Assembly: GCA_965552055.1 (NCBI GenBank)
Contig: CBEVQO010000004.1
Location: 106,213-170,212 of the forward strand
From: an uncultured bacterium
GTDB lineage: Bacteria > Hydrothermota > UBA3073 > NMUJ01 > CBEVQO01
Reading direction: 5' to 3'
DNA: 64,000 nucleotides
The translations under genes were made by a program, and so were the position numbers. Shown in pieces: positions 1,112 through 56,667 of this stretch. The stretch's first letter is position 1. Every line of letters begins with the position of its first letter. The notes beneath the pieces are model-generated. The model made no database searches. It was not told the DNA's origin and was given only the letters and a program-made list of their open reading frames with translations.

Positions 1112-1138
1112 ATTATATTCAAAAATTCAGTTTGTCAA
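1112..1138 (-). promoter_or_regulatory. Sigma70-like promoter of tRNA-Val-groES-groEL (TTGACA-N15-TATAAT)
   Basis: Perfect hexamers at 1138-1133 and 1117-1112; tRNA begins 11 nt downstream. Confidence 0.75.
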
Positions 1139-1197
1139 GTCAAAAATTTTAGCTTGACAATCCCGTATTTTGAAGATTTTAATGTAAGGAGGGGATT

Positions 1198-2136
1198 ATG
1201 GTTGAAGTAATTGAGCGTCAAACAGGCAACCTTGTCCTGTGGCTCGGTTTTGATAAAGAAAATGGTACTTATGGCGTTATTTTCAGTGGAACAATGGATA
1301 CCACTCCGGTAGAAGAGATAAAACCTGTTCTCCAGCAGAAATGTTTCTCAGGGCAATACAACTATATCGTGGATACAGAAGGCGTAAGCTATGTGAGCTC
1401 AACTGGACTGAGGATTCTGACTCTGTTTCACCAGCATCGAAAACTCTTTGCGTTATTCTCAAAATTGAACGATTACATACGGAAACCCTTTACATTGCTC
1501 GGAATAGATAAATTCCTTCAATTCTATTCAAATATAGATGAATTAAAAGGAAAACAGGGCATATCCGATGAACTCCTCCTGCAGATGAAGAATCAAAAAA
1601 GCAAAGTAATATTTGGTGTAAGGGCATCGGAAAGGTGGATTAAAATATTACAGGATTATGTTGGTAAAGCAGAAGCAGTAAAATATGTTCGCGAATTGAC
1701 GCCATTTATTATGAAAGTAGATAAAGAAACAGAAATTACTTTACCAAGTGAAGAAAAATATTCAGCAGTGCTCTATAAATTCTTTGAAAAAGCTATAAGA
1801 AAAGAAGCAAAAATCCCTGCAACAGTGCTTTCAGATGACGAGATAGAATTAGCTGCAAGGGAGATTATGACAAATGCAGTTAAGCACGGATATAATTATA
1901 AAAAAGATGGAATCATTGAAGCATCTTATAAAATTACATCAAAAGAATTAATTTTAGAGGTTACAGACTATGGTGTTGGTATGCGTCCTGAGGCAAAAGT
2001 TCTGAGCAAAGGAAAGGGTATTCCTCTTTTAAGGAGAATGTTCGATGCGGTTCTTTTTGATAAGCCACAGGGTCCTCCGAAAAGGGGTCAGGCACTGGGT
2101 ACGGGCACAAGGGTTCAGCTCATAAAATACCTGTAA
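1198..2136 (+). CDS. Fused STAS (anti-sigma antagonist) and RsbW/SpoIIAB-like HATPase anti-sigma domain protein
   Basis: N-terminal VDTEGVSYVSSTGLRIL (STAS phospho-Ser region); C-terminal EIMTNAVKHG (N box), DYGVG (G1), GKGIPLL (G2). Confidence 0.75.
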   Translation: MVEVIERQTGNLVLWLGFDKENGTYGVIFSGTMDTTPVEEIKPVLQQKCFSGQYNYIVDTEGVSYVSSTGLRILTLFHQHRKLFALFSKLNDYIRKPFTLLGIDKFLQFYSNIDELKGKQGISDELLLQMKNQKSKVIFGVRASERWIKILQDYVGKAEAVKYVRELTPFIMKVDKETEITLPSEEKYSAVLYKFFEKAIRKEAKIPATVLSDDEIELAAREIMTNAVKHGYNYKKDGIIEASYKITSKELILEVTDYGVGMRPEAKVLSKGKGIPLLRRMFDAVLFDKPQGPPKRGQALGTGTRVQLIKYL

Positions 2137-3818: not shown

Positions 3819-3875
3819 CTCATAATAATATAATCTGTAAATGGATTTTGTCAAGTTTAAGAGTTCTTTTCTTAA

Positions 3876-4118
3876 AATTTTTAATGTGAGTAAGCGAGCA
3901 AGGCATTGCCTTGACCACGCTGTGGCTTTCTAAGACGCTTTGTTAATAATTTTTAATGCGAGGCGTAGCCGAGCTCATTACCAAACATGGGTTGATATGT
4001 CAGCCCGTTACGGTGTTGTGGGTTACTCTGGTGTTTTACGCTTTATCTTCTGATTGCGTTTCAAGAAGGGTAAGGAGTGGGCTGACTTAATCGGGAAGGT
4101 GGGGACTGGGAGGTGGGG
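3876..4118. other. GC-rich structured intergenic element (mini-hairpins, long stem, G4 motif)
   Basis: GCGAGGCGTAGCCGAGC at 3958-3974; palindrome CAAGGCA-T-TGCCTTG; inverted repeat GTCAGCCC/GGGCTGAC (3999-4006/4079-4086); four G3+ tracts at 4093-4118. Confidence 0.5.
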
Positions 4119-5111: not shown

Positions 5112-5112
5112 T

Positions 5113-9798: not shown

Positions 9799-9825
9799 AA
9801 TATAAGGAAAAAAAGAGGCTGTCAA
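9799..9825 (-). promoter_or_regulatory. Promoter TTGACA-N15-TATATT of the clostripain-like gene
   Basis: TTGACA 9825-9820, TATATT 9804-9799, then SD AAGGAGGG. Confidence 0.65.
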
Positions 9826-9988: not shown

Positions 9989-10015
9989 TTGACATTTTGA
10001 ATAAGTGATTATAAT
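9989..10015 (+). promoter_or_regulatory. Promoter TTGACA-N15-TATAAT, leaderless (ATG 6 nt downstream)
   Basis: TTGACA 9989-9994, TATAAT 10010-10015, ATG 10022, no SD. Confidence 0.72.
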
Positions 10016-10021
10016 TAGTGT

Positions 10022-10435
10022 ATGGTATTGATACAGATATTTTTCGGGATACTTGTCTTGATGTTTGGCTGGCTCTGGTATTCTTTACATAAGATGGAAG
10101 AAAGGTTGCGTCGTGAGATGCGTGAAATGGAAAAAAGATTGCGAGAAAGTGATGAAAAATTGCGCAAAGAGATGATAGAAAGAGACGAGAGACTGCGTCG
10201 TGAGATGTTAGAGCATTTCAAAAAAATAGATGAACATTTAAGAAGGATTGATGCCCTGTTAATGCTGATAATAAAGGTTCATTTTGAAGAAATAGGTAAA
10301 GAAGCAATGGAGATAATGATGGGTTTAAAAACAGAAAGAGATGTGTTTTCGGATATTGCCAGAAATCTTGCCGATACTTTTAAGGATAAGATAAGAGAGG
10401 TTGTAAGAGAAGAGATTGCCAAATCCAAATCCTGA
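10022..10435 (+). CDS. Hypothetical protein, N-terminal membrane anchor plus coiled coil
   Basis: Hydrophobic residues 1-21, then ERLRREM-type quasi-repeats. Confidence 0.75.
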   Translation: MVLIQIFFGILVLMFGWLWYSLHKMEERLRREMREMEKRLRESDEKLRKEMIERDERLRREMLEHFKKIDEHLRRIDALLMLIIKVHFEEIGKEAMEIMMGLKTERDVFSDIARNLADTFKDKIREVVREEIAKSKS

Positions 10436-13100: not shown

Positions 13101-13127
13101 TTGACAATGGTATTAGTTTGTTATAAT
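13101..13127 (+). promoter_or_regulatory. Promoter TTGACA-N15-TATAAT of the TBDR/PorV locus
   Basis: TTGACA 13101-13106, TATAAT 13122-13127. Confidence 0.75.
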
Positions 13128-19424: not shown

Positions 19425-22400
19425 ATGCATGTTCTGATGTTTTTATTGGGGATAGGGTTGGGAGATACGGTTAAGCTTTATGCATATAATTTTGGTTTCT
19501 CAAAATATTATTATCCTATATTAGCGGTGTGCAGATATGTTGACGATGTTAATGGTATTCGCATATTTACGGAAGAACAGACGATTGATAGGAGCAAATT
19601 GCAGTCCATGAAGGTCATAGGGTTTAAGGGGTATGATGATGTGCCTTACTTTGTGTTGTTGCTTCCTGATTCTCCCTATGTGTGGTATTATAGAGGAGAT
19701 GAGCGTTCTCTTTATGTCTATGATCATAAATGGAATTTGTCTCCTACTGCGATGGACTATCATCTTGATGGAAGTAAAGTCTGGGTAATAGTAAGTAACT
19801 GGGGTGTAGGAAAGGGGGTTTACTGGGTAGATAAAATTAGCAGTGGGCTTAACTGGAAGAGAAAAGGAGGTCTTGGTTCTAATAAAATAAGAGCTGTTTG
19901 TATTTCTCCGCGTAAAGAGACTTCTGACTTTCTTGCTTATGCTGTTGCTTATATTGAGAAAACTGTAATTGATTCTTATAAATTGGATACCACTGTTCTT
20001 ATACATCCCGATACTGTAGTAGTTGGTACATTAGAAGTAGCCGAAGTTGATACATATACATTGGTTGACACAGTTTCGTATTATACGCATGTGGAGAGAT
20101 GCGAAATGCTTTATTCGAGCAATTTGCGGAGCTCGTGGAGTTTAGTTGATACTGATACGAGTGTAATTCCAATTTATGACATACATTTTTATTATCTGTG
20201 TGGAGATACTGTTGATAAGAATGTGATATATGCGAGTACGAATAAGGGGATTTATAAGTGGGATGGGAATCTCTATCAATGGATTGATCTTTCTTTCCCC
20301 GAGAGTACTGTTGTTAAGAAGTTAGCTATAAATTCGACTTACGGATTATTTGCTCTTACTGAAGAAGGTGATTTATGGGAATATAAAGGCAGTTGGGAAC
20401 ATGTTCTCAGTGCTGTGCGTGATATTTATTTGGGTAAAAATGAGATTTATGTTGCTACGCCTACAGGGATAAAGAAGTTTGTTGGTGATGGAAATTGGGA
20501 AGTGATAGATGAAGGTCTTTCTGATTGGGGTTATTTAAGGTGTTTAAAAGATTGCTATGGAATTGCTTGTGCGGATGATAAGTTATTTATGTTATCCTAC
20601 GGTGGATTTGGCTATTATGATAGTATCTGGTATGAAGCAAATAAGAACTCGCCTTACTACACCAGTTATATTACAAATTCTGAGGTATGTACAGTTGCTG
20701 CTTATTTCCCGAATGTGAGAGATGTTATTGTTGATTTCTTTAACAGGAGTCTACCTGATGTGAATAATGATGGTTTTGTTGATATTGTTATTATGGATAT
20801 TTCAAGGTATTATACAACTTATAAAGGGAGCGAAAAGGAATTTGATTTGCGTGCATATTTTGATTCGATAAACATGCATAGTGTTTCTGAGATAGATACG
20901 AGTGCTTACAAGACCAATTTTTCGGATATGATTTATGTTGACTGTGTGCCTTTTGATTTATCTTCTTCTGATGATGCGTGGTATGCTTTGTATGAAGGTT
21001 TATACGATATGATGCAATGGGTTGTGGATCGTGATGAAGAGAGGTGGGTGAGGGATGGCTGTAAAGAATGGCTGAAGTTCAAATTGGGAAAGAGAGGTAA
21101 TAGTGTTACGATTTTAAATGGTAATTCATTGATTGAATGGGGTGGTGCTATAATGGATTTTGAAAGTGATTATTCTTTTGCTTTCATTTATTACATTTAT
21201 GAGAAATTGTTAAACAGGAATGATGAATTTGTGAAGGAGCTCGCAGCTGAGCCTCTTAACGGGATAGAGGGTTTGCAGACGGTTTTGTTAAGGTATGGTT
21301 GTGATGAGGCTTTTGCAGATATAATGAAAGATTTTGCGCTTACTGTTTACTTTGACGGTGTAGAAGGATTTATGGATAATAAGTACAATTTAGAAGATAT
21401 TGATTTGAGCGTTGCTCCTGTTCTTGAAAACTGGGATTCTAAGGTTTGTGAAATTGACCTGGAGCCTTTTGCTCCCTATTATATGTATTCCTATCAGGGC
21501 TATGGAGGAGCTTATGGAGCGAATAAGGATAATATGGGGAATCCTCTTGTTTTCAATGGTGAGGATAAAGGCAGTTATTATGTATTTGTTAGCAAAGAAA
21601 GGAGACCCTGGTTGGAGACGCCGCTTGATACAAGTAAGATAATTGAATTTGAGAGATTGTGTCTTAACAAAATGCAGATCGGTTTTGCAGATATTTCTGA
21701 ATTTTTAGAAGATACGCCTTCGTGTTCTGTTTTTACTGTTATTCTATTAAATGTTGATAAAAGTGCTCTCGCGAGGAAAATAGTTATAACATTTGATACC
21801 CTGCCACCTGATTTCTCTTCGCTGATAGTTTATCAGAATGTATATGGGTTGAAGAATCTGGATATATATGTGTTTTCGAGTGAGAGTCTTTATGTTTCTG
21901 ATATAATAGCTGAGAGTGCTGTTGTTGATATTTATAAGGGTGATAGTTTGCTTCAGAGTTTGAAATGTCCATATTTTGGCTATGATGCTTTCTCAGGTTA
22001 TTATATTTATAGTTCGACATATACTTTGCCCGGTGAAGGCACTTATTATTTGATACTTTCTGGGAGGGATGTTGCTTCTGTTCCTTTGCGTCCCGAAACT
22101 GTTCAGGTTTCTGTTGTTTATAAATCGAAAGGAAGAAAGATAACGCTCAATGGGTGTGATGTTGAAGTTTTAAGTAATGGGGATGGTTATCTTCTTATAA
22201 GTTCTATTTTACCTGAAAAATACTCCAAGGTATACGGAGTTAAGTGTTCGGATGTTTCACCGGTTTATATAGTTGGTAAGAAGGGTGAGCCTTTAGGCTG
22301 TCGTATTTTGATGAGTTATCCTGCTTCTGATGTTGGTCTTTATCGTTTGCAGGGTGATAAATGGGTATATGTGAATGGCTATTACGATGAGAGCAAGGGT

Positions 22401-27061: not shown

Positions 27062-27076
27062 GCACTGATAGCAGCG

Positions 27077-27114
27077 GGGAGGCAGGTTCGATTCGCCTGC
27101 CTCCCTTTATTTTT
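27077..27114 (+). terminator. Rho-independent terminator
   Basis: GGGAGGCAGG/CCTGCCTCCC 10-bp stem followed by TTTATTTTTT, 15 nt after the stop codon. Confidence 0.85.
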
Positions 27115-27134
27115 TATAATAACTTAATTATTTG

Positions 27135-27161
27135 TTGACAAATTCACATTTTTATTAAATT
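27135..27161 (+). promoter_or_regulatory. Promoter TTGACA-N15-TAAATT, leaderless gcvPA
   Basis: TTGACA 27135-27140, TAAATT 27156-27161, GTG 27167, no SD. Confidence 0.6.
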
Positions 27162-27166
27162 ATTTG

Positions 27167-28510
27167 GTGAGCCATTTCATCCCAATAACTCCCGAAGAAA
27201 AAAAAGAGATGCTTAAAAAAATCGGTGTTAAAAATTTCGAAGAATTGATAAATACTATTATTCCTGAAGAAATAAGATTAAAGGGAGAACTCGATTTACC
27301 GGAAAGTTTATCGGAACTTGAAGTAAAAAGAGAGGTGGAAAAAATTGCCAATTTAAATGTTTCGACGGATTCTTTTATAAATTTCATGGGTGCAGGTGCT
27401 TATGACCATTTCATTCCATCTGCTGTTTTTCACATAATAAGCAGACCTGAATTTTACACCGCTTATACTCCCTATCAGGCAGAAGCATCTCAGGGCACAT
27501 TACAGGCGCTTTACGAATATCAATCCATGATTTGTGAATTGATGGAAATGGATGTTGCCAATTCTTCAATGTATGATGGTGGAACTGCTATTGCTGAAGC
27601 ATGTCGCATGGCACTCGCAATTAAAAAAGGAGAAAAGGTACTCGTAGCAGGCACCCTTCATCCTTATTATTTGCGATGCATAAAAACATATCTTTCTGAA
27701 GAAAAAGTTTTAATATGTCCGGAAAAAGGTGGTCAGATAGATATTGAGAAATTAGATGAATTAATGAAAGATGCATGTGCTTTTGTTTGTCAGAGTCCGA
27801 ATTTTTATGGCGTTCTTGAAGAAGTATTTGATATAAGCGAAATTGTTCACAAAAATGGAGGTTTATTAATTGCTGTTCCTTTGCCCATTTCTCTTGGTTT
27901 ACTTTCACCTCCCGGTGAATATGATGCGGATATTGTGGCATGTGAGGGTCAAACACTTGGTTTACCGTTGAATTTTGGTGGTCCTTATCTTGGCATTTTA
28001 TGTGCCAGACGCGAATTCATAAGATACATGCCGGGTAGAATTATTGGAAGGACAGTGGATAAGGATGGCAAAGATGCTTTTTGTATGGTATTACAGACAA
28101 GGGAGCAACATATAAGGCGTGCACGAGCAACATCCAACATCTGCACAAATCAAACGCTTTGTGCAATAGCATCTGCTGTTTATCTTGCACTTATGGGTAA
28201 GGAAGGTTTGCGTGAAGTCGCAGAACTATGCATGCAAAAAGCCCATTATCTTGCAGAAAAAATAGAAGAAATAGAAGGATTTAATTTGAAATATAAAAAG
28301 CCATTTTTTAATGAATTTGTGGTTGAAACACCTTTACCTGCTTTGGAAATTTGTGAGAAATTGAAAGATAAGAAGATATTCGCCGGAGTGCCTTTGAGTA
28401 AATTTTATCCGGAAAGAGAAAAAGAATTGTTGATAGCGGTTACCGAGAAGCGCACTAAGTGTGAGCTCGATAATTTTGTTGAACTTTTGAATACTTTTAA
28501 AGTGGCTTGA
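27167..28510 (+). CDS. gcvPA: Glycine dehydrogenase (decarboxylating) subunit 1
   Basis: FYTAYTPYQAEASQGTLQALYEYQS, NSSMYDGGTA, REQHIRRARATSNICTNQ. Confidence 0.95.
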   Translation: MSHFIPITPEEKKEMLKKIGVKNFEELINTIIPEEIRLKGELDLPESLSELEVKREVEKIANLNVSTDSFINFMGAGAYDHFIPSAVFHIISRPEFYTAYTPYQAEASQGTLQALYEYQSMICELMEMDVANSSMYDGGTAIAEACRMALAIKKGEKVLVAGTLHPYYLRCIKTYLSEEKVLICPEKGGQIDIEKLDELMKDACAFVCQSPNFYGVLEEVFDISEIVHKNGGLLIAVPLPISLGLLSPPGEYDADIVACEGQTLGLPLNFGGPYLGILCARREFIRYMPGRIIGRTVDKDGKDAFCMVLQTREQHIRRARATSNICTNQTLCAIASAVYLALMGKEGLREVAELCMQKAHYLAEKIEEIEGFNLKYKKPFFNEFVVETPLPALEICEKLKDKKIFAGVPLSKFYPEREKELLIAVTEKRTKCELDNFVELLNTFKVA

Positions 28511-28533
28511 CAAATCTATGGTATGATTAATAT
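28507..28533 (+). promoter_or_regulatory. Promoter TTGACA-N15-TAATAT
   Basis: TTGACA 28507-28512, TAATAT 28528-28533, SD GGGGGGAG. Confidence 0.6.
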
Positions 28534-36370: not shown

Positions 36371-36806
36371 TTTTAACTCCTTTTTTCTTATTGAAAAGTT
36401 TATCGAAAGTGTCAATTATGAATTTGGCAGATTTAAAACCTTCTTTTATTACATTAACACTTTTACCCCCTCTGTAATATCCAAGTATATGGAGAACTTC
36501 ATAAGCTGTATTAAAATGTGCTTTTAATTTGCCGTTATGCGGTATTTTGTTGAGCCATTGCATATATTCTCTGTAATCCGCCGGTAATTCCTCTGGCTTT
36601 TTCCCCTTTTTTAAGATGTATGCATCTATTGCGAGAAGGACTGCGAGATATCCGATGGCACATGCCTCTGATACCCTTTTGCTATCGGCATATCTTATAC
36701 CATATTCAATTGGTGTCTCCTTTAAAATATCCTTTGCATTTTTGAAATATCTTTTTGCTTCTCTTATTGCTTCTTCAGGACTTTTAGGTCTTTCTCTTTT
36801 TTCCAT
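36333..36806 (-). CDS. DUF5618-like (HEPN/PaREP1-fold) protein, copy A
   Basis: [41 protein letters not shown]. Confidence 0.75.
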   Translation of the reverse strand: MEKRERPKSPEEAIREAKRYFKNAKDILKETPIEYGIRYADSKRVSEACAIGYLAVLLAIDAYILKKGKKPEELPADYREYMQWLNKIPHNGKLKAHFNTAYEVLHILGYYRGGKSVNVIKEGFKSAKFIIDTFDKLFNKKKGVKNGRKTANARNTN

Positions 36807-37239
36807 ATTCTTTCTCCTTTTCATTAAAAAGTTTGTCAAATGTGTCAATAATTATTTTTGCTGCTTTGAAACCTGCTTTTATGATATCGACACTCGTTCC
36901 TCCTCTATAATATCCCAGGATGTGTAAACTTTCATAAACCGTATTAAGATGTGCTTTTAATTTGCCGTTATGCGGGATTTTGTTGAGCCATTGCATATAT
37001 TCTCTGTAATCCGCCGGTAATTCCTCTGGCTTTTTCCCCTTTTTTAAGATGTATGCATCTATTGCGAGAAGGACTGCGAGATATCCGATGGCACATGCCT
37101 CTGATACCCTTTTGCTATCGGCATATCTTATACCATATTCAATTGGTGTCTCCTTTAAAATATCCTTTGCATTTTTGAAATATCTTTTTGCTTCTCTTAT
37201 TGCTTCTTCAGGACTTTTAGGTCTTTCTCTTTTTTCCAT
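36784..37239 (-). CDS. DUF5618-like protein, copy B
   Basis: Same motifs; LNTVYESLHILGYYRG. Confidence 0.75.
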   Translation of the reverse strand: MEKRERPKSPEEAIREAKRYFKNAKDILKETPIEYGIRYADSKRVSEACAIGYLAVLLAIDAYILKKGKKPEELPADYREYMQWLNKIPHNGKLKAHLNTVYESLHILGYYRGGTSVDIIKAGFKAAKIIIDTFDKLFNEKEKEYGKKRKT

Positions 37240-37672
37240 ATTCTTTCTCCTTTTCATTAAAAAGTTTGTCAAATGTATCAATAATTATTTTTGCTGCTTT
37301 GAAACCTGATTTTATGATATCGACACTCGTTCCTCCTCTGTAATATCCCAGGATGTGTAAACTTTCATAAACCGTATTAAAATGTGCTTTTAATTTGCCG
37401 TTATGCGGTATTTTGTTGAGCCATTGCATATATTCTCTGTAATCCGCCGGTAATTCCTCTGGCTTTTTCCCCTTTTTTAAGATGTATGCATCTATTGCGA
37501 GAAGGACTGCGAGATATCCGATGGCACATGCCTCTGATACCCTTTTGCTATCGGCATATCTTATACCATATTCAATTGGTGTCTCCTTTAAAATATCCTT
37601 TGCATTTTTGAAATATCTTTTTGCTTCTCTTATTGCTTCTTCAGGACTTTTAGGTCTTTCTCTTTTTTCCAT
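37217..37672 (-). CDS. DUF5618-like protein, copy C
   Basis: Near-identical to copy B. Confidence 0.75.
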   Translation of the reverse strand: MEKRERPKSPEEAIREAKRYFKNAKDILKETPIEYGIRYADSKRVSEACAIGYLAVLLAIDAYILKKGKKPEELPADYREYMQWLNKIPHNGKLKAHFNTVYESLHILGYYRGGTSVDIIKSGFKAAKIIIDTFDKLFNEKEKEYGKKRKT

Positions 37673-38105
37673 ATTCTTTCTCCTTTTCATTAAAAAGTTT
37701 GTCAAATGTATCAATAATTACCTTTACTGCTTTGAAGCCCCCTTTTATCATATCAACATTTGTCCCGCCTCTGTAATATCCGAGGATATGCAGGTTCTCG
37801 TAAGCCGTGTTTAAGCACGCTTTTAGTTTGCCATTGTGCGGAATTTTACCAATTTCTTTCATGTATTCCGAAAATTTTGTTGGCAAATCTCCTGTTTCTT
37901 TACCTTTTTTAAGCAGATAAGCATCTATTGCCAGAAGTGCTGCAAGATAACCGATAGCACAAGCTTCTGATACCTTTTTGCTGTCAATATATCTTTCGTA
38001 TTCAACGGGTATTTCTTTTAAAATATTTTTGGCGTTTTTAAAGTATCTTTTGGCTTCAGAGATTGCTTCTTCAGGACTTTTGGGTCTTTCTCTTATTTTT
38101 TCCAC
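37650..38105 (-). CDS. DUF5618-like protein, copy D (most divergent)
   Basis: GTG start behind AAGGAGG; divergent throughout (EIPVEYERYIDSKKV, KETGDLPTKFSEY). Confidence 0.75.
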   Translation of the reverse strand: MEKIRERPKSPEEAISEAKRYFKNAKNILKEIPVEYERYIDSKKVSEACAIGYLAALLAIDAYLLKKGKETGDLPTKFSEYMKEIGKIPHNGKLKACLNTAYENLHILGYYRGGTNVDMIKGGFKAVKVIIDTFDKLFNEKEKEYGKKRKT

Positions 38106-38541
38106 TGCTTGCCTCCTTTTTCTTATTGAAAAGTTTATCGAAGGTGTCAATTATGAATTTGGCAGATTTAAAACCTTCTTTTATCATCTGGACACCCCTT
38201 CCGCCTCTATAATATCCGAATACATGTAAATTTTCATAGGCTGTATTAAAATGTGCTTTTAATTTGCCGTTATGCGGTATTTTGTTGAGCCATTGCATAT
38301 ATTCTCTGTAATCCGCCGGTAATTCCTCTGGCTTTTTCCCCTTTTTTAAGATGTATGCATCTATTGCGAGAAGGACTGCGAGATATCCGATGGCACATGC
38401 CTCTGATACCCTTTTGCTATCGGCATATCTTATACCATATTCAATTGGTGTCTCCTTTAAAATATCCTTTGCATTTTTGAAATATCTTTTTGCTTCTCTT
38501 ATTGCTTCTTCAGGACTTTTAGGTCTTTCTCTTTTTTCCAT
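38071..38541 (-). CDS. DUF5618-like protein, copy E
   Basis: Same motifs; [23 protein letters not shown]. Confidence 0.75.
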   Translation of the reverse strand: MEKRERPKSPEEAIREAKRYFKNAKDILKETPIEYGIRYADSKRVSEACAIGYLAVLLAIDAYILKKGKKPEELPADYREYMQWLNKIPHNGKLKAHFNTAYENLHVFGYYRGGRGVQMIKEGFKSAKFIIDTFDKLFNKKKEASSGKNKRKTQKS

Positions 38542-38971
38542 ATTCTTTCTCCTTTTCATTAAAAAGTTTGTCAAATGTATCAATAATTACCTTTACTGCT
38601 TTGAAGCCCCCTTTTATCATATCAACATTTGTCCCGCCTCTGTAATATCCGAACACATGCAGGTTTTCATAAGCCGTATTAAAATAAGCCTTTAATTTGC
38701 CGTTATGCGGGATTTTGTTGAGCCATTGCATATATTCTCTGTAATCCGCCGGTAATTCCTCTGGCTTTTTCCCCTTTTTTAAGATGTATGCATCTATTGC
38801 GAGAAGGACTGCGAGATATCCGATGGCACATGCCTCTGATACCCTTTTGCTATCGGCATATCTTATACCATATTCAATTGGTGTCTCCTTTAAAATATCT
38901 TTTGCATTTTTGAAATATCTTTTTGCTTCTCTTATTGCATCTTCAGGACTTTTGGGTCTTTCTCTTATCAT
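38519..38971 (-). CDS. DUF5618-like protein, copy F (first in the operon)
   Basis: ATGA overlap with the upstream kinase gene; [23 protein letters not shown]. Confidence 0.75.
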
Positions 38972-39462
38972 CCCTGTTTATAACCTATTTTTCTCAAAAA
39001 TTCTTTTCGGCATTTTATGTCTTCTTCTTTTTCAAAGCCAAGAGGTGAGAATCCATCCACCACACCGAGCACACCTCTACCCTGTTCTGTTTCAGCGATT
39101 ATCACTTCACATGGGTTTGCAGTGGCACAGAATATCCTGCATACCTCCTGCACATTCTTTATTCGGTTCAAAACATTAATCGGATAAGCATTTTTTAAAA
39201 ATATGATAAATATGTGACCCGCCCCTATGTTCATTGCATTTTTCTTAGCAAGTTCAATCATCTCTTCATCGTTACCTGTGTATCTTATGAGACGGGGACC
39301 GGATGACTCACAAAAAGCCAGACCAAACTTTATCCCGGGAAAAGAAGTTATAAGAGCTTCATAAAGGTCTTCCACTGTTTTTATGAAATGAGACTGTCCC
39401 AAAATAAAATTCACTTCTTCGGGCTTTTCTATTTTTACTTTTAAAATTCTAACATCTGCCAT
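38968..39462 (-). CDS. Adenosine-specific kinase (DUF355 family)
   Basis: [50 protein letters not shown]; start trimmed to ATG 39462. Confidence 0.88.
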
Positions 39463-39467
39463 CAATA

Positions 39468-39494
39468 AATATAAGCAAAATCCGAAATTGTCAA
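39468..39494 (-). promoter_or_regulatory. Promoter TTGACA-N15-TATATT, leaderless
   Basis: TTGACA 39494-39489, TATATT 39473-39468, ATG 39462 five nt later. Confidence 0.68.
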
Positions 39495-39518: not shown

Positions 39519-39545
39519 TTGACAAAATGAAATATCGAATATAAT
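39519..39545 (+). promoter_or_regulatory. Promoter TTGACA-N15-TATAAT, leaderless pdxJ
   Basis: TTGACA 39519-39524, TATAAT 39540-39545, ATG 39552. Confidence 0.72.
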
Positions 39546-39551
39546 AATAAA

Positions 39552-40259
39552 ATGAGATTATCAGTAAACATTGACCATATTGCTACCCTTAGAGAGGCGC
39601 GTAAAATACATTATCCTGACCCTGTTCATGCGGTCCATCTTATAGAAATAGCAGGAGCTCATGGTATTACCTGTCATTTAAGAATTGATAGAAGACATAT
39701 AAAGGAAAGGGATATCAAATTATTGAAGGAAATATCTTCTTTGCCATTAAATGTGGAGGTATCACTTACAGATGAGTTATTGCGCTTTTTATGTGATGTT
39801 CGTCCTGACTGGTGCTGTCTTGTTCCTGAGCGTCCAGAAGAAATAACAACAGAGGGTGGGCTCGATATTATAAAATTTTTCGAGGAAACAAAGAGAGCGG
39901 TTGATATTTTAAAATCATCGGATATAAAAGTAACAATTTTCATTGAGCCAGATAAAAAGATTATTGAGAAAGCCAGATTAACGGGTGCAGATGCGGTTGA
40001 GATAAATACCGGTAAATATTCGGAAAGCAAAGGAGAAGCTGCTATTCGTGAATATAAGCGCATAAAGGAAGCAGCGAAGTTTGCAAAAGAAATGGGTTTC
40101 GAGGTGCACGGCGGTCATGGCTTGAATTATCAGAATGTGAAATTAATAGCACAAATATCCGAAATTGAAGAGCTGAGTATAGGGCATAGTATAATATCTC
40201 GCGCCGTATTCGTCGGACTTGAGCGTGCAGTAAGGGAAATGCTCTTGCTCATTTCATGA
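39552..40259 (+). CDS. pdxJ: Pyridoxine 5'-phosphate synthase
   Basis: [56 protein letters not shown]. Confidence 0.96.
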
Positions 40260-47183: not shown

Positions 47184-47779
47184 TGTCTTTTTGTAATTAT
47201 TAGATAAGTTCCTTCAAAAGAAGATATAAGTTTCCATTCACTCATAAAACCATTTTCTTTTAAAAGTTTTAAGTAATCTTGTGGTTTAAAGAGGAAAACA
47301 GGTTTTTGCCACAATAATAAAGAGGTTTTTGCTACTATTTTTGCAAATAAAGTGGGGGCTTGCACTTTGATTAAGGCTATACCATCTTTTTTCAATATTT
47401 CCTTTAAATGCATTATGATATCTTTTGCTCTTTCATATTCTGCCATCAATAATAATATATTTTCAAATTTTTCGTTTATTTCGAAGAAATTCTTTTTTAT
47501 GAATTTGGCATTTTTAAATCTTTTTCTGGCAAATTTTATCATTTTGTTATCTACATCGAAAAAAGTGATGTTATGATTTTTTATTATCTTTACAAGATAG
47601 GGAAAGATATAACCCGTACTGGAGCCGACAACGCAAAGTTCTTTGGGATTAATTTCTTTTAGCGCTTTGATTATTATTTTGGTTGATTTTTGGCGAAAAA
47701 GTAAAAGGGGAGGAAGTTTAAAAGAAAATTCATAAAGCCAGAGAGGTACCCATAATTTTATTTTACCGAGTTTTGACAT
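47180..47779 (-). CDS. Class I SAM-dependent methyltransferase-like protein
   Basis: CVVGSSTG (motif I variant), TFFDVDNKMIKFARK; start trimmed to ATG 47779. Confidence 0.65.
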   Translation of the reverse strand: MSKLGKIKLWVPLWLYEFSFKLPPLLLFRQKSTKIIIKALKEINPKELCVVGSSTGYIFPYLVKIIKNHNITFFDVDNKMIKFARKRFKNAKFIKKNFFEINEKFENILLLMAEYERAKDIIMHLKEILKKDGIALIKVQAPTLFAKIVAKTSLLLWQKPVFLFKPQDYLKLLKENGFMSEWKLISSFEGTYLIITKRQ

Positions 47780-47784
47780 CTTCA

Positions 47785-47811
47785 ATTTTAATGAAAAAAA
47801 TTTTTTGTCAA
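47785..47811 (-). promoter_or_regulatory. Promoter TTGACA-N15-TAAAAT, leaderless
   Basis: TTGACA 47811-47806, TAAAAT 47790-47785, ATG 47779. Confidence 0.68.
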
Positions 47812-47854
47812 CAAATTCTTGACAATACAGGAAATCGATATAAATATTAGAATT

Positions 47855-50740
47855 ATGATACTGACACTATTGATTAGTTATATTTATACATGGAAGCCGC
47901 AAATCGTAGATAATGATGGAGATTGTGGCAAATGGTGCAGTATAGCATGTGATTCCGCGGGCAATCTTTATGTTTCTTATTATAATGCAACGAAAGATTC
48001 ATTATTTTATGCAAGATTTGACGGAAATAATTGGGAAAAAACAGGAATTACAAAAGGAGGAATTTTCTCTTCACTTGCTATTGACCAAAATAAAAATCCT
48101 CACATTGTATTTTATTCTTCTGATAGGAGATACCTTTTGCATACCTATTTTGATACAGTTTGGCATTTTGATACCATTGATACGGTGCTGGGTGGGTATT
48201 GTGATATTGCTTGTAGATTTGGGAAAATATTTGTCGTTTATTATGACAGTATAAATGGAGACCTTAAAGGAGCCATAATAGGGGACTCAATATCTATAGG
48301 TATTTTTGACACCACAGGTGATGTAGGTAAATGGGCTTCGGTTTCGATTCCATCAGATACTTCGCTGGCATTTGCAGTTATTTCTTACTATAGAAAAGAT
48401 AAAGGAGATTTTTTGGGTTGTTACAAAACAGCGGGAACATGGTTTAAATTACAAATAGACACTATGGGGGATGTGGGCAAGTACTCAGATTGCGTTGTTT
48501 CTTCAAATGCCGATTATATCTATGCCTTTTTCTCTTATTTTGATGAGACAAATTCCAAATTGAAACTATTTGCATGCAGTGCTTATGTTAAAATTGATAC
48601 TATTTTCCTTGGTTTCGTTGATACATCTTTATCTTCTGGTTATTACACTTCTGTTACATCTTATAAGTTATCGCCGTTTGTTAGCTATCATCAAAAAAAT
48701 AAAGGTATCCTTAAAGTTGCTTATTTTTATAACAGAAAATGGTTTATAAAGCCAGCAGACACCATAGGAATTTGTGGTTTGTATTCTTCATGTGTGAGTG
48801 ACGGAAAATATGTTCATATTGTATATTATGATTCTTTGTCTAAGTCTCTAAAATATTTAAAATGCAAACCAGATTCTGTGAACAGTGTGAAGAAGATAAT
48901 ACCGGATACGATAAGAGTGATTTCTGAGACATTAAAAGTGTTTAAGATAATTTTTGCTTTTCCTTTATCTTTTACTTCGGTTCAAAAAGTAGAAGATTCT
49001 ATTTCACTTAAGGGTACAAAATCGGGAGAGCACTCTTTAATCGAGATTAGTGTAAATGGAGAGACATTAAAAATCGTTAAGGATGATAGTTCATTCATTG
49101 AAGGAGAAACATTAACATTGTATATTCCAAAAAGCATAAAAGACATTCACGGTATGGAAATATTGAGAGAATATTATCTTCGATTTAAGGTAAAATCTTA
49201 TCCACCTTATTTGCTATTTACCGAACCTTTTGATGGAGAAGGAAAAGTATCTTATGATTGTCAAAGAGTGAAAGCAGTTTTTTCTGAGAAGATGGATTCT
49301 CTGTCTATCATTAAATCGTTAAATTTGCGTCATACTTTTATAAAAGGAGAAGTTTCAGGTAATCATCAATATGACTCTATAAAGATTGCTCTTGAAACAC
49401 TTTATATTTATTTGAATCCAAAAAAGAAATTTTATGAAAAAGAGAAAGTTTATTTTGTGATAGGAGCTGATGTAAGGGACTTTCACGGCATTGAAAAAGG
49501 AGTTGTAGATAGTGTTTGCTTTTATATTGAGGGTTTTCCTCCTTCACCTCCTTTGAATGTATGTGCGAATGGGACAAATCCTTCTCCGTGGACTTCAAAT
49601 GGAATGTTTGTGATAACATGGGAAAATCCACCAAGAGATACATCTTATCAAAGTCCTGTAAAATATGCATTTTATAAAATAAGCAAAAGACCTGCTTTTG
49701 ATTACGATACAACAGGCAAGTTTATTTCTTCTCCTTCTACTCTTTATTGTGCTCTACAGGGGATAGATACAGTTTTTGTATGGCTTGTTGATACGATGGA
49801 ATGCTTGAGCTGCGATAGTTTAAGTTTAGTAATTCTTAGAGGCGATACTTTGCCTCCACTTTACCCTGAGTCTATTTATGTCAATGGATTAGCAAAGGTA
49901 AAGGGGTGGTTCAATTTTGATACATTATGGATTAGATATAAAGAAAATCCTGTACAAACAAAATCTGATATTTCTGGCATTCGGCGTGCTTTTTATAAAA
50001 TAGGGGAGCCTCCTTCGCATCCATATGATACAACAGGAAGTTCCAAGGAAAATCCTTTCCTCGTGAAAATGCCAGAAGGTGAAAGCGAATTTTTCCTTTG
50101 GCTTCAGGATAATTCTGGAAATGTAAACCATATTAACAATAAAAATGTAAAGATAAGAGTCGATCTTACTTCTCCGGAGATAATCGATGTTATTGCCAAA
50201 AATGTCAGAAAGGATACTTTTGAGGTTAGAGTGAGAGCAAGAGATAGATTGTCTGGAATTAATCTTATAAAGATTTACAATACACAAGGTGAGATTATAA
50301 ATTCGTTGCAAGTTGTTGATACATTGATAGACACTTCATTGCGTTTTTACGCACAGGATACAACATATATTGTGAGTGTCATAGATAGTGCAGGTAATGA
50401 AAGTGAGAAAGAAAAGGTAACCATTATTCCGGAGTTTTTAACAAGACGGGAAGTCTATGCATATCCCAATCCTGCAAAAGATTATGTTTATTTTCACTTC
50501 TTATTGAATAAAGATGCCAAGGTAGTTGTAGCGGTGTACAATCTTCGGGGCTATCTTGTAAGGAAAATTGTAAAAGAAGTTCCTGGAGGAAGACCTTCTC
50601 ATTTGTTACCACAGGAGCAAAGGATTAAATTATCTACTTATGGTTTACCACCCGGAGTTTATTATTATAGGTTTACAGCGATACCTGAGAATGGAGGGAG
50701 AAAAGTCTCGGTGAAAGGCAAATTTGCGATAGTGAAATGA
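47855..50740 (+). CDS. Secreted multidomain protein (propeller, Ig-like domains, T9SS-like CTD)
   Basis: SYYD...GDLK-type repeats; TEPFDGE...KAVFSEKMD (Big_5-like); C-terminal VYAYPNPAKD...VYNLRGYLV...GVYYY. Confidence 0.7.
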   Translation: MILTLLISYIYTWKPQIVDNDGDCGKWCSIACDSAGNLYVSYYNATKDSLFYARFDGNNWEKTGITKGGIFSSLAIDQNKNPHIVFYSSDRRYLLHTYFDTVWHFDTIDTVLGGYCDIACRFGKIFVVYYDSINGDLKGAIIGDSISIGIFDTTGDVGKWASVSIPSDTSLAFAVISYYRKDKGDFLGCYKTAGTWFKLQIDTMGDVGKYSDCVVSSNADYIYAFFSYFDETNSKLKLFACSAYVKIDTIFLGFVDTSLSSGYYTSVTSYKLSPFVSYHQKNKGILKVAYFYNRKWFIKPADTIGICGLYSSCVSDGKYVHIVYYDSLSKSLKYLKCKPDSVNSVKKIIPDTIRVISETLKVFKIIFAFPLSFTSVQKVEDSISLKGTKSGEHSLIEISVNGETLKIVKDDSSFIEGETLTLYIPKSIKDIHGMEILREYYLRFKVKSYPPYLLFTEPFDGEGKVSYDCQRVKAVFSEKMDSLSIIKSLNLRHTFIKGEVSGNHQYDSIKIALETLYIYLNPKKKFYEKEKVYFVIGADVRDFHGIEKGVVDSVCFYIEGFPPSPPLNVCANGTNPSPWTSNGMFVITWENPPRDTSYQSPVKYAFYKISKRPAFDYDTTGKFISSPSTLYCALQGIDTVFVWLVDTMECLSCDSLSLVILRGDTLPPLYPESIYVNGLAKVKGWFNFDTLWIRYKENPVQTKSDISGIRRAFYKIGEPPSHPYDTTGSSKENPFLVKMPEGESEFFLWLQDNSGNVNHINNKNVKIRVDLTSPEIIDVIAKNVRKDTFEVRVRARDRLSGINLIKIYNTQGEIINSLQVVDTLIDTSLRFYAQDTTYIVSVIDSAGNESEKEKVTIIPEFLTRREVYAYPNPAKDYVYFHFLLNKDAKVVVAVYNLRGYLVRKIVKEVPGGRPSHLLPQEQRIKLSTYGLPPGVYYYRFTAIPENGGRKVSVKGKFAIVK

Positions 50741-52584: not shown

Positions 52585-53223
52585 TCCCAGAGATTCGTTT
52601 ATCAAAACAATAGTGATTCTACCTTTAAAGGGTTGCCTTTCGATGATTAATAAATAATTGCAGATTCTATCAGTTGAATCACAATCCGTGCATTTACCGA
52701 GTGTGACACAAGGAGTATTTTTATTAAGCCTTTTCGCATTTAAAATAGCTGCATAGTTTCTAATTCTTGAAATTGCATCTTCAACAGAGCCTGCGATTTT
52801 GTTGACACCTGCCACTAAAATTACTTTTTTGGGACCGAACATTATGGCTGCAACTCTATTTCCGTAAGCATCGAGGTAAACAAGTTTGCCGTCCATTGTG
52901 ATAGCATTTATCCCCGTTATAAAATAGTCAGCTGTCAAACCTTTTTTTCGCATTTCGAATTTTTCTTCTTTTGAGAGATTTTTATCGTAAGGGTCGAAGA
53001 AAGTGTAATTGCCATTTTTAAGTGCATCATAAAGCCCTATCTCCTGCACTGTTAAAGAGCCACCCATACCGACAGTTGAGCCATCGGGTATCATTTCGAG
53101 AATTTTCTTTAATGCTTCTTCTTTGTTGTCACAGAAAATAACTTCATAACCCTTTGCTTTTAATATGGGAATTAATTTTTCTGCACGAATCTTCCTCAGC
53201 CAGTGTTTTAGCTCGTATCGCAT
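52579..53223 (-). CDS. LUD-domain (lactate utilization/YkgG-like) protein
   Basis: VGMGGSLT, ADYFITGINAITMDGKLVYLDAYGNRVAAIMFGPKKV, CTDCDSTDRIC. Confidence 0.85.
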   Translation of the reverse strand: MRYELKHWLRKIRAEKLIPILKAKGYEVIFCDNKEEALKKILEMIPDGSTVGMGGSLTVQEIGLYDALKNGNYTFFDPYDKNLSKEEKFEMRKKGLTADYFITGINAITMDGKLVYLDAYGNRVAAIMFGPKKVILVAGVNKIAGSVEDAISRIRNYAAILNAKRLNKNTPCVTLGKCTDCDSTDRICNYLLIIERQPFKGRITIVLINESLGL

Positions 53224-53228
53224 CTATT

Positions 53229-53255
53229 AATATAATCATTTTGCGGATAAGTCAA
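53229..53255 (-). promoter_or_regulatory. Promoter TTGACT-N15-TATATT, leaderless
   Basis: TTGACT 53255-53250, TATATT 53234-53229, ATG 53223. Confidence 0.62.
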
Positions 53256-53296
53256 TAATTTTTATTGACAAATTTATATTTTGTCGAAATTTAAAA

Positions 53297-55585
53297 GTGA
53301 TAATTTTTTTACTGCAATTAAATTGCGATTCTCTAATAAATTTGCTTACGAAATTAACTTATGAAGAGAGGCAGAATCTATACAGGAGCATAAATTTTGA
53401 TAAATCTTTATGTGAATCTTTATTTTTTCGAGCAAAAAATTCTGCATTGATTGGTAAAATTTATAGGGGCTATAAAATTGCGAGTTATCTGGATGAGATA
53501 AGTGATTTTTTAAATGATAGTTTGTGTAAGGCAAAGGTTTACTGGCTTTATGGCTTTTTGAATTACTGTGAGGGACATTATGCTGATGCAGTGCCGTATT
53601 TTGAAAAGAGCCTTGATATTTTTGGGCAATATCATGATACTCTAAATAAGGGCAGGGCTTTACATGCTCTTGCTGTTACTTTATACTATCAGGGCAGATT
53701 TAAAGAAGCGATGAAAAATTATAAAAGGGCACTCGGAATTTTTAAAAAATACAGTGTAAATGACGAAATCGAATGCCTTAACAATATCGGTTTATGTTAT
53801 TATCAGGAGCAAAAATTTGATAGTGCGTTATTTTATTATCATAAAGCATGTTCTCTTTTGCCTTGCTGTGAAAAAGAAAAAAAGAAAAGAATTTTGCCTT
53901 TGTTATACAATAATATTGGGGTGTTGTATGATAAAATTTACCTGAAAAAACTTGCGAAAAAATACTGGCTAAAAATAATCAAGGAGTCAAATTTTAAATG
54001 GGCTTTAGCCTGTGCTTATGCAAATATTGGGAGGCTTTACCAGGAGCGCTCCGAAGAAGATAGTGCCATTTTATTTCTGTTGAAATCTCTTGAATATTAT
54101 AAGAAGATAAGAAACAGGAGGGGCGAAGCACAGGTTTATAATAATCTTTCGCAATGCTATATCAATAGTGACTGGCATAAAGCTTTATTTTATGCAAGAA
54201 GGGCTTTAAAATTGAATAGTGAAACGGGCGATTATGATAATTATTGTTATTGCCTATTTTTCATTTCAAAGATTTTTTTATCTGCGAATTATAGAGATTC
54301 TGCTTTGTTTTATATTAATAAGATGCTGAACATGGAGCGTTTTCCCGTTAAATTAAAATGGAGAGTTTTTCTTTTGAAAGGTGACATTGTTTTTGACTCT
54401 TCTTTATTTTATTATAAAAAGGCATTGGAGACACTGGAAGCGAGTATTAAGCATGCCCGGAAGATTGAAGTTAAAGCTGGACTTTATGAAAATTTATCAA
54501 AACCTTATTTTAAAATTGCCGAATTCTTTGCAAAAAGAGGTAAAAAGGATTCGGTTTTAAAGTATCTTGAATTATCTTCACAGAATGTTTTAAAAGAAGT
54601 CACAGGGTATAAGATGGGTGTAAATATTAGAAGATTGAGAGAAAAGTTGAGGACATTACAGATAGCCTTTATAGCCAATTATGAGAATGAATTTTTAATC
54701 CTGTTTATGAGGAATGATAGTATCCATGTCTTCCTGAAAGATATTCCTGTTGAGAGTTTGAGGTCTGTTAAAGGAAGGATATTTGAAAGCCTCATAAATG
54801 CGGTTAATATGAAGAAGATAGAGATTCCGTATAGGGAGTTGAAATGGCTTTATGATAAGATATTTTCGTGCATAGATAGTTTTATTGATACTTCTTCGGT
54901 TCTGTTTATAGTTCCTCATTTTGAGTTGCTCGAAATACCTGTAGAATGTTTATGGGATGGTGATAGATTTCTGGGTGAGAGATATAAAATTGTTTATTTA
55001 CCTTCTTTATCTTTGTTGCGTAAGAGCAAAAAGCGATTTGGTAATTTATTGTTGTATGCTTATGGTAAGGAGTTAAGATACACTATTGCTGAAGTAAATG
55101 CTATAAAATCTATATGGGGGACTGCAGTTGTAGATACATCGGGTAAATTTTTGAAGGCTGTATCGGAATATGATATTTTACATCTTGCGACACATGGGCT
55201 TTTCAATGAAGATGATATAATGAATTCTGGTGTGCTTTTAAGCGATGATACACTTTGTCTGAATGAAGTGCTTAAAATGAATTTGAATTTATCCCTGTGT
55301 GTTTTATCAGCGTGCGAGACATCATTTCTTGTTCGTTATCCTTCTTCTCCCTTTTTTGGACTTGTTTTTGCTTTCATAGCCAGGGGTACGGATTTTGTTG
55401 TAAGTTCCAACTGGCCTGTAAGAGATGTTATAGCTTACAATTTTATGGTTGCTTTTTATAAGAAATTAAGGGAGACAGGAGATGTAGTGGATGCAATGAA
55501 GTATGCCCGTGTTAGTTTGTTGAATAAATACAAGCATCCTGCTTTCTGGTCTACCTTTATACTGGTGGGATGCGTGAGAAAATAA
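53297..55585 (+). CDS. TPR-CHAT (caspase-like) protease
   Basis: TPRs (LNNIGLCYY, YNNIGVLY, YANIGRLY); CHAT dyad ILHLATHG and VLSACET; SNWPV; HPAFWSTF. Confidence 0.88.
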   Translation: MIIFLLQLNCDSLINLLTKLTYEERQNLYRSINFDKSLCESLFFRAKNSALIGKIYRGYKIASYLDEISDFLNDSLCKAKVYWLYGFLNYCEGHYADAVPYFEKSLDIFGQYHDTLNKGRALHALAVTLYYQGRFKEAMKNYKRALGIFKKYSVNDEIECLNNIGLCYYQEQKFDSALFYYHKACSLLPCCEKEKKKRILPLLYNNIGVLYDKIYLKKLAKKYWLKIIKESNFKWALACAYANIGRLYQERSEEDSAILFLLKSLEYYKKIRNRRGEAQVYNNLSQCYINSDWHKALFYARRALKLNSETGDYDNYCYCLFFISKIFLSANYRDSALFYINKMLNMERFPVKLKWRVFLLKGDIVFDSSLFYYKKALETLEASIKHARKIEVKAGLYENLSKPYFKIAEFFAKRGKKDSVLKYLELSSQNVLKEVTGYKMGVNIRRLREKLRTLQIAFIANYENEFLILFMRNDSIHVFLKDIPVESLRSVKGRIFESLINAVNMKKIEIPYRELKWLYDKIFSCIDSFIDTSSVLFIVPHFELLEIPVECLWDGDRFLGERYKIVYLPSLSLLRKSKKRFGNLLLYAYGKELRYTIAEVNAIKSIWGTAVVDTSGKFLKAVSEYDILHLATHGLFNEDDIMNSGVLLSDDTLCLNEVLKMNLNLSLCVLSACETSFLVRYPSSPFFGLVFAFIARGTDFVVSSNWPVRDVIAYNFMVAFYKKLRETGDVVDAMKYARVSLLNKYKHPAFWSTFILVGCVRK

Positions 55586-56664
55586 AAATATTGATAATAG
55601 GACCAACCCCTCCGCCATACTTTGGAACAGCTGTGGCGACACAAAAGATATTACAAAATGAAAAATTAAATAAAAAATTCGATTTATTGCATCTTGATAC
55701 ATCGGATAGAAGGGGAGTCGAGAATATAGGGAGATGGGATTTGCAAAACATTAAACTTGCCATTTTTCACATTTTAAAATTATTTCTGTTGCTTCTGAAG
55801 AAAAAAGTAAATCTTACATACATCCCGATTGCCCAAAATGTACCCGGTTTTTTGCGAGACGGGATTTTTATTCTTATAAGCAAGCTTTTTGGCAAAAAAG
55901 TAGTTTGTCATCTCAGGGGAAGTTATTTCAGGGATTTTTATGAGAGAACAAATTCCATTATGCGATTTTATATAAAGTTCTGTCTGAAAAAAGTCGATAG
56001 AATGATAGTATTGTGCGAAAGGTTGAAGAAAATTTTTAGTGGTCTCATAGATGATAAGAAAATATCCGTGGTGCCGAATGGTTTACCCGTTAGGGAATTA
56101 ATAAGGAGAAAAGGTGAGCATTTTTTATATTTAAGTAATCTTTCTGCAGGTAAGGGGGTATTCTTTGCATTGAATGGCTTAAAAATTCTGGATAAAGATT
56201 TGCACTTTAAGTTTATATTCGCAGGCAACTGGCGTAACTCATATGATAAGAAGAGGGCGATTGAGATTATAAAAAGTTTTAAAAAAATCGATGTGCAACT
56301 GGTTGGTGCAGTGAAGGGCGAAGAAAAATCGGAATTGATGTCGAAATCCATAGCTCTTATTTTTACTCCTGTTCATAAAGAAGGTATGCCATGGGTGATA
56401 ATAGAGGCACTCTCCTATGGTTTACCCATTATTTCGACAGATAGAGGGTGTATCCCAGATATGGTAAAGGATGGTGAAAATGGTTTTATAGTGAAGGATG
56501 AGAAAGATCTGGCAGAAAAGATAAAGATATTGCTGGAGAATGAAGAATTAAGGGAAAAAATGTGCAGGAAATCGCGAGAGATTTTTTTAAATTATTACAA
56601 TGAGGATAAAAGTATGGAGAAGTTTATCGAAGTTTTTCACTTGACTTTTTCATCAAAAGGATAA
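55570..56664 (+). CDS. Glycosyltransferase family 4
   Basis: IIGPTPPPYFG, YLSNLSAGKG, EGMPWVIIEALSYGLPIISTDRG. Confidence 0.9.
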   Translation: MREKIKILIIGPTPPPYFGTAVATQKILQNEKLNKKFDLLHLDTSDRRGVENIGRWDLQNIKLAIFHILKLFLLLLKKKVNLTYIPIAQNVPGFLRDGIFILISKLFGKKVVCHLRGSYFRDFYERTNSIMRFYIKFCLKKVDRMIVLCERLKKIFSGLIDDKKISVVPNGLPVRELIRRKGEHFLYLSNLSAGKGVFFALNGLKILDKDLHFKFIFAGNWRNSYDKKRAIEIIKSFKKIDVQLVGAVKGEEKSELMSKSIALIFTPVHKEGMPWVIIEALSYGLPIISTDRGCIPDMVKDGENGFIVKDEKDLAEKIKILLENEELREKMCRKSREIFLNYYNEDKSMEKFIEVFHLTFSSKG

Positions 56665-56667
56665 AAT
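56641..56667 (+). promoter_or_regulatory. Promoter TTGACT-N15-TAAAAT, leaderless
   Basis: TTGACT 56641-56646, TAAAAT 56662-56667, GTG 56674. Confidence 0.62.

Follow-up and report, generated by a model that had tools for sequence, protein, structure and literature searches.

The 64-kb stretch of DNA analysed here (the window; 36% G+C), which comes from an uncultured bacterium, carries twelve predicted sigma70-type promoters whose -35 and -10 boxes are separated by exactly 15 nucleotides (nt). The evidence supports the conclusion that these sites, named N15 after the length of their spacer, are the general, housekeeping-type promoters of this organism and that its modal spacer is 15 base pairs (bp), not 17 bp. 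A spacer of 17 +/- 1 bp is treated as near-invariant in bacteria and is built into promoter predictors, some of which accept 16-18 bp only. In 49 genomes with mapped transcription start sites, the median spacer was 17 bp in every one, with 99.2% lying within 16-18 bp (PMC12641261; bioRxiv 10.64898/2026.09.23.753901).

Enrichment of the 15-bp spacer and the genes served

We scanned both strands of the window for the pattern TTGACW-N15-TAnnnT and used dinucleotide-preserving shuffles (n = 100) as the background. The pattern is matched 13 times against 2.41 +/- 1.52 expected, a count reached in 0 of the 100 shuffles, while the N16 and N17 versions, with 2 and 3 matches over the whole window against 2.14 and 1.88 expected, respectively, are at chance level. 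Across the spacer histogram from N10 to N24, N15 gives the clearest spike (13 matches); the other spacers between N10 and N19 have at most 5 matches each and N20 has 8. Two of the 13 N15 matches lie inside long open reading frames (20938+ and 49884-), in agreement with a chance background of about 2. When the scan was limited to the canonical spacers of 16-18 bp, the true promoters were scored in poorer registers and a modest excess only was obtained. A reading of the same DNA made from its letters alone, hereafter the sequence-only reading, had listed eleven such sites and a weaker one at 53265 with GAAATT as its -10 box. All 12 were found again with exactly 15 nt between the hexamers, the perfect combination of TTGACA and TATAAT being present at four of them, as it had stated (1138, 9989, 13101, and 39519), and the two N16 sites (3854- and 57412+) and two ambiguous sites (1154+ and 47819+) were as described. 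A spacer histogram set against shuffled sequence, which it had named as a genome-wide check, comes out within the 64-kb window with N15 enriched and N17 at chance.

The hexamers of the 12 sites are close to the sigma70 consensus: the -35 box is TTGACA in 10 and TTGACT in 2 of them, and the -10 box is TAnnnT in all except the GAAATT site. An A/T-rich tract with the consensus aaA.ttTtt abuts the -35 box. The spacer is the element that departs from the canonical 17 +/- 1 bp, with a mode of 15 (12 sites), two N16 sites, and no unambiguous N17 site. The 15-nt spacers are mutually dissimilar (mean pairwise identity 41%), indicating that the sites are independent and not copies of one element. Half of the sites, with -10 coordinates 10010, 28528, 39473, 53234, 53286, and 1117, carry a TG dinucleotide at positions -4/-3 from the -10 box (TGnnTAnnnT), and the canonical TGn arrangement is seen in 1 of 12. 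An extended -10 element in the strict sense, with TG exactly one base upstream of the box, is therefore not the rule for the window sites; the relatives described below carry TGn.

Transcription units were delimited from gene orientation and gaps, which gives ~18 starts in the window. N15 sites are found at 11-12 of them, N16 sites at 2, and ambiguous sites at 2, the rest showing nothing clear. The genes served by N15 sites include tRNA-Val, gcvPA, pdxJ with a cell-wall operon, an operon that reaches the acetyl-CoA carboxylase genes (accBC), a TonB receptor together with large type IX-secreted proteins, glycosyltransferases, and others, so that the housekeeping and stable-RNA usage characteristic of sigma70-type promoters is observed. 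This broad range of genes and the consensus sequence of the hexamers suggest that the sites are read by the primary sigma factor.

Register of the -10 box and predicted leaderless starts

To locate the -10 box without prescribing its sequence, we used as an anchor all 25 TTGAC sites that are non-coding or close to a start. Measured from the beginning of the -35 box, information is highest at offsets 21, 22, 24, 25, and 26. The anchored consensus is TAnAAT, its second-position A and its sixth-position T each being present in 18 of 25 sites; these peaks place the -10 box at spacer 15. In the N17 register, the position of the conserved final T is mostly occupied by A, in the anchored set as in the octamers, and the information content falls; an N16 register was rejected as well.

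The start codons offer a second measure of the register. At 8 of the 12 promoters, an in-frame start codon of a long open reading frame lies 5-6 nt past the -10 box without an intervening ribosome-binding site, i.e. it occupies the 6th-7th nt after the hexamer, and the database gene calls independently use two of these eight starts, those of GcvPA (447 aa, P0001) and PdxJ (235 aa, P0121). This distance rules out the N17 register at the eight genes, as only 3-4 nt would be left. The claim of an N15 register made in the sequence-only reading is hence strengthened, the eight predicted leaderless start codons fixing the -10 position independently. Its promoter list needs a qualification for the tRNA-Val site only, where the -10 region, TATAATAT, is compatible with N15 and TATAAT or with N17 and TAATAT; the remaining sites do not allow such a second reading. 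The non-leaderless promoters are followed by leaders of 15-19 nt with strong GGAGG- or GGGGG-type ribosome-binding sites, or by the tRNA 11 nt downstream.

Judged by position, the eight genes look like sources of leaderless messenger RNAs (mRNAs), whose transcripts would start at the 6th-7th nt after the -10 box, the canonical distance. Since this distance would be ordinary, the 2-bp shortening concerns the position of the -35 box. Contig L213 of the same species extends 9.5 kb past the right end of the window, and its single divergent intergenic region holds one N15 and one N16 predicted leaderless promoter, a third, ambiguous site, and no N17 site. In Deinococcus, a -10 box adjoining the open reading frame was experimentally shown to give leaderless mRNA (PMC12340547). 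The promoters found here resemble this Deinococcus-Thermus type in that TAnnnT lies a few bases before the start without a Shine-Dalgarno sequence (8 of the 12 sites and two in L213), but differ in that a near-perfect -35 box accompanies every such -10 box. Moreover, a -35 box added in Deinococcus worked at a spacing of 17 +/- 1 (PMC12340547), whereas here it stands at 15. Leaderless mRNA thus appears to be a main mode of expression in this organism, paired with strong -35 boxes.

Table 1. Predicted promoters and further pattern matches in the window. Hexamers are given with the spacer length between them.
Feature	Position	Strand	Downstream start or basis	From -10 box to start codon
tRNA-Val promoter, TTGACA-15-TATAAT	1112..1138	-	mature tRNA 5' end (1100) 11 nt past -10 box	
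TTGACA-15-TATATT	9799..9825	-	ATG 9780, 18 nt downstream, AGGAGGG ribosome-binding site	
TTGACA-15-TATAAT with TGnn	9989..10015	+	ATG 10022, 6 nt past -10 box, predicted leaderless	10016-10024
TTGACA-15-TATAAT with TGn	13101..13127	+	TonB-receptor/secreted-protein operon, 13135/13147 to 27061	
TTGACA-15-TAAATT	27135..27161	+	GTG 27167, 5 nt past -10 box, predicted leaderless gcvPA	27162-27169
TTGACA-15-TAATAT with TGnn	28507..28533	+	ATG 28549, 15 nt downstream, preceded by GGGGGGAG	
TTGACA-15-TATATT with TGnn	39468..39494	-	ATG 39462, 5 nt past -10 box, predicted leaderless adenosine kinase	39460-39467
TTGACA-15-TATAAT	39519..39545	+	ATG 39552, 6 nt past -10 box, predicted leaderless pdxJ	39546-39554
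TTGACA-15-TAAAAT	47785..47811	-	ATG 47779, 5 nt past -10 box, predicted leaderless methyltransferase operon	47777-47784
TTGACT-15-TATATT with TGnn	53229..53255	-	ATG 53223, 5 nt past -10 box, predicted leaderless LUD-domain gene	53221-53228
TTGACA-15-GAAATT with TGnn, weaker site	53265..53291	+	GTG 53297, 5 nt past -10 box, predicted leaderless CHAT/TPR gene	53292-53299
TTGACT-15-TAAAAT	56641..56667	+	GTG 56674, 6 nt past -10 box, predicted leaderless metallophosphoesterase	56668-56676
Minority N16, TTGACA-16-TATATT	3827..3854	-	ATG 3818, 8 nt past -10 box, peptide chain release factor	
Minority N16, TTGACT-16-TAAAAT, TG in canonical TGn position	57412..57439	+		
TTGACA upstream of STAS/kinase gene (ATG 1198), register ambiguous	1154..1186	+	no clean -10 at N15-N17; TTTAAT at N18	
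TTGACA upstream of secreted protein gene, register ambiguous	47819..47846	+	ATAAAT at N15, TAAATA at N16	
N15 match inside long open reading frame, chance background	20938..20964	+	pattern scan	
N15 match inside long open reading frame, chance background	49858-49884	-	pattern scan	

Several of these promoters stand in a context worth recording. The gene behind the promoter at 9825(-) encodes a C11 peptidase of 1555 aa that bears a type IX secretion tail. The 14-kb secreted-protein operon ends in a strong intrinsic terminator at 27076-27115, a 12-bp G+C-rich stem followed by a T-run, which lies ~20 nt upstream of the -35 box of gcvPA and differs among strains by one T in the T-run; the gcvPA promoter itself shows one single-nucleotide difference between strains, in the spacer, that leaves its length unaltered. 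The promoter at 28507..28533 is identical in three other strains. The gene that follows it (28549-29142) encodes an apolipoprotein-like coiled coil and contains a coding repeat of 33/66 nt at 28737-29057 (9-10 copies of the 33-nt unit, TRF), whose copy number varies by strain: the protein has 197 aa in the window and 153 aa in L015 and L016. The adenosine kinase gene is the first of a minus-strand gene run extending to ~32197, and the operon that it starts contains a tandem array at 36390-38966 (-) with a period of 433 nt and 5.9 copies that are 85% alike; this array encodes paralogous DUF5618 genes of ~150-170 aa each, and its longest open reading frames overlap. The ambiguous site at 1154 precedes a gene in which a STAS domain is fused to an anti-sigma-type kinase (HATPase_c_2; 1198-2136), and a gene combining HTH and HATPase_c_2 is located at L213:4869-6044, which suggests partner-switching control of an alternative sigma factor.

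Spacer lengths in relatives and other bacteria

The best named relatives of three window proteins belong to candidate division WOR-3, with Stahlbacteria, Kryptonia, and Zixibacteria lower. Protein identity to these relatives is at most 64%, only same-species sequences being closer, and an exact DNA and peptide search of species-representative genomes found no close relative. The window encodes several proteins with a type IX secretion tail, and the DNA runs that hold it are mostly hydrothermal-vent metagenomes. A proxy for growth temperature based on amino-acid composition, with a formula that is reportedly that of Zeldovich et al. 2007, gives ~59-69 °C; the same script gives ~34 °C for a Listeria locus, 79-84 °C for Thermocrinis and Hydrogenothermaceae loci, and 60 °C for a Pelotomaculum locus. 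The lineage is an isolated one, related to WOR-3 and probably moderately thermophilic. Its strains are 97-99% identical, too close for footprinting, and over 18 kb holding 7 promoters no insertions or deletions are seen among 4 natural populations; given this near-identity, the strains show only that the promoter lengths are stable.

The comparison was extended to relatives by pooling eight loci (~150 kb) that encode GcvPA or PdxJ 56-64% identical to those of the window, one of them syntenic, under a uniform non-coding mask. The counts of N15, N16, and N17 sites in non-coding DNA are 2, 18, and 10 in the relatives and 10, 2, and 1 in the window (Fisher exact p = 8e-6), with the proviso that two of the loci, L221 and L222, are near-orthologous and the pooled counts not fully independent. 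The -35 box is ~1 bp closer here than in the nearest relatives and 2 bp closer than in other bacteria. In 80 loci from diverse phyla (1.24 Mb), N16 (49 matches) and N17 (57 matches) rise above a background of ~30 and N15 stays at background. The lineage specificity proposed in the sequence-only reading agrees with both comparisons, and as far as the available sequence reaches, there is good support for a 15-bp norm specific to this lineage. In a literature search, neither another lineage described as having a 15-bp spacer norm nor a promoter study in WOR-3 was found.

The WOR-3-like relatives (L009, L018, L216, L218, L221, and L222) themselves favour 16-bp over 17-bp spacers, 18 versus 10, and a tendency to short spacers may extend to the whole WOR-3-like group. 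By position, several promoters of these relatives, such as L218:8075 and L218:2643, are leaderless as well. In a further relative, with a 60% identical PdxJ, intergenic TTGAC-N13-TAATAT occurs at L223:390(-) and L223:9376(-) and the spacing looks heterogeneous. A locus labelled WOR-3 (L131) has 52% G+C and was set aside as unrelated.

Two broader scans looked for the same architecture elsewhere. Metagenome contigs were searched for a T-tract, TTGACA, a spacer of N15-17, TATAAT, 5-6 nt, and ATG, and the first 120 loci were taken: 81 (68%) have N17, 34 (28%) N16, and 5 (4%) N15, and the flanks of the five N15 loci show no N15 enrichment. Named genomes were scanned for TTGACA-N15-TATAAT before tRNA genes, which gave a strong excess in Treponema, where 33 Treponema/Spirochaetia loci (L101-L211) carry TTGACA-N15-TATAATAT ~12-14 nt before tRNA genes of many specificities. 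The -10 region of these Treponema promoters is thus the conserved 8-mer TATAATAT, and since the other promoters in those loci have spacers of N17-18, they are best read as N17 with TAATAT; Treponema was accordingly rejected as an N15 lineage. The flanks of the hits in Aquificota, Deferribacteres, and other groups show no N15 enrichment. Five Thermocrinis species (L133, L140, L153, L197, and L208) have in common one tRNA promoter that reads TTGACA-N15-TATAAT with TGn in the canonical place. Read as N17, its -10 box would be TAATTA or TAATAA, with no T at the end in any of the five; from its sequence, it looks like a true N15 promoter in a hyperthermophile.

Among characterized systems, the window promoters are close to those of canonical sigma70/SigA in E. 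coli and B. subtilis, with which they share TTGACA and TAtAaT, the A/T-rich upstream tract, the inferred distance from the -10 box to the start, and housekeeping use; they differ in their modal spacer of 15 and in the TG, which lies one base further from the -10 box. Spacers of 15 bp can function with sigma70 in E. coli, where they are favoured on relaxed DNA (PMC9303308, PMC8695583), but E. coli promoters with spacers of 15-16 bp are a weaker minority, whereas here the 15-bp spacer is the norm and is flanked by consensus hexamers.

In Bacteroidetes, which belong to the same superphylum, primary-sigma promoters consist of a -33 TTTG and a -7 TAnnTTTG, 19-21 bp apart. The organism studied here resembles them in its membership of the FCB superphylum, its type IX secretion genes, and the presence of a non-canonical feature in its promoters. 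The motifs, in contrast, are classical here, and the Bacteroidetes distance from TTG to TA is E. coli-like, whereas here it is 2 bp shorter. A Bacteroidetes-type motif was looked for in the window and rejected: TAnnTTTG occurs 85 times against 77 expected, in none of the 12 promoters, and the combined motif has 1 match.

Explanations for the short spacer and their significance

The explanation that we favour, with a probability of roughly 55%, is that the sites are primary-sigma promoters read by a holoenzyme with an altered sigma2-sigma4 geometry. The promoters, which are laid out as an A/T tract, TTGACA, a 15-bp spacer, and TAtAaT, would be of the sigma70 type, and the holoenzyme of this lineage would hold sigma region 4 nearer to, and rotated relative to, sigma region 2, whereby a 15-bp spacer would bring the two boxes into alignment. 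Candidate places for the underlying change are the sigma 3.2 linker, region 4, and the beta-flap. The displacement of the TG by one base points to a change in protein, not in DNA alone.

Several points weigh against this explanation. An altered sigma or polymerase geometry would be a structural cause deduced purely from promoter layout; no rpoD was found within the window, nor one from the relevant lineage in any other locus examined. The displacement of the TG rests on 6 sites. The relatives already lean to N16, and topology or temperature could cause part of the shift. The sample comprises 64 kb plus 9.5 kb of one species (~73 kb), with ~20 transcription units, and run searches found no RNA runs containing the organism.

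An effect of DNA topology is unlikely as the whole cause but is a serious alternative. Under it, an unchanged polymerase would act on a chromosome that is relaxed or positively supercoiled, owing to weak or absent gyrase or to a reverse gyrase, and short spacers would restore the angle between the boxes. The model of Forquet et al. sets the optimal inter-box angle at 17 x 34 deg x 0.94 = 543 deg (PMC9303308). From this formula we calculate that N16 would be optimal near a superhelical density of 0 and N15 near +0.065. The vent origin of the samples and the temperature proxy speak for such an effect, and relaxed DNA could explain the N16 leaning of the whole WOR-3-like group. A density of +0.065 would, however, be extreme for a bacterium growing near 60 °C, and heat untwists DNA, which is the opposite direction. 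In the relative L012, for which the temperature proxy is the same, the single clean intergenic promoter is N16, and hot-spring WOR-3 genomes of the genus Caldipriscus are reported to lack reverse gyrase (PMC9789041). Finally, twist offers no way to displace the TG by one base from the -10 box next to it. We therefore favour, with moderate confidence, a change at the protein level, to which an effect of topology may be added.

It is quite improbable that the N15 sites are read by an alternative sigma factor that is abundant and uses a short spacer by nature, with weaker or unrecognised sites left for the primary one. Several families of alternative sigma factors do use shorter spacers, and partner-switching regulators are encoded at 1198-2136 and in L213. 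Both hexamers are nevertheless the primary-sigma consensus, the genes served are diverse and make up about two thirds of the inferred transcription units, and the window contains no competing N17 set.

Still less probable is a mis-assigned register, in which the functional -10 box would lie 2 nt downstream (TAATnn-like) and the true spacer would be 17. The tRNA-Val site fits both registers, as do the Treponema tRNA promoters, in a genus whose other promoters are N17-18. Shifting the box by 2 nt, however, leaves 10 of 11 sites without the final T, with a drop in information content, and brings the box to just 3-4 nt from the start codon at the eight predicted leaderless genes. A chance excess in AT-rich intergenic DNA, for which the low G+C content and the frequency of TAnnnT in such a genome might speak, or the spread of one mobile promoter cassette, is effectively refuted by the shuffles and the enrichment of N15 alone, by the unrelated spacers, and by the fixed position of the sites relative to the start codons.

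The chances fall slightly short of even that a 15-bp spacer optimum is here a property of the primary-sigma holoenzyme itself, which would be a first for a bacterial lineage. If an altered holoenzyme does underlie the short spacer, the lineage would be a natural variant of the sigma2-sigma4 ruler and would form a graded series with its N16/N17 WOR-3-like relatives, a series that should pinpoint the protein determinant among the sigma 3.2 linker, region 4, and the beta-flap. A lineage with a 15-bp norm would mean that the ruler can evolve and would open a natural way to find out which component, within sigma or the polymerase, sets it. In uncultured thermophiles of this kind, annotation and expression design would call for a model specific to the lineage. 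The predicted leaderless starts further indicate that leaderless translation can go together with strong -35 boxes as a main mode of gene expression.

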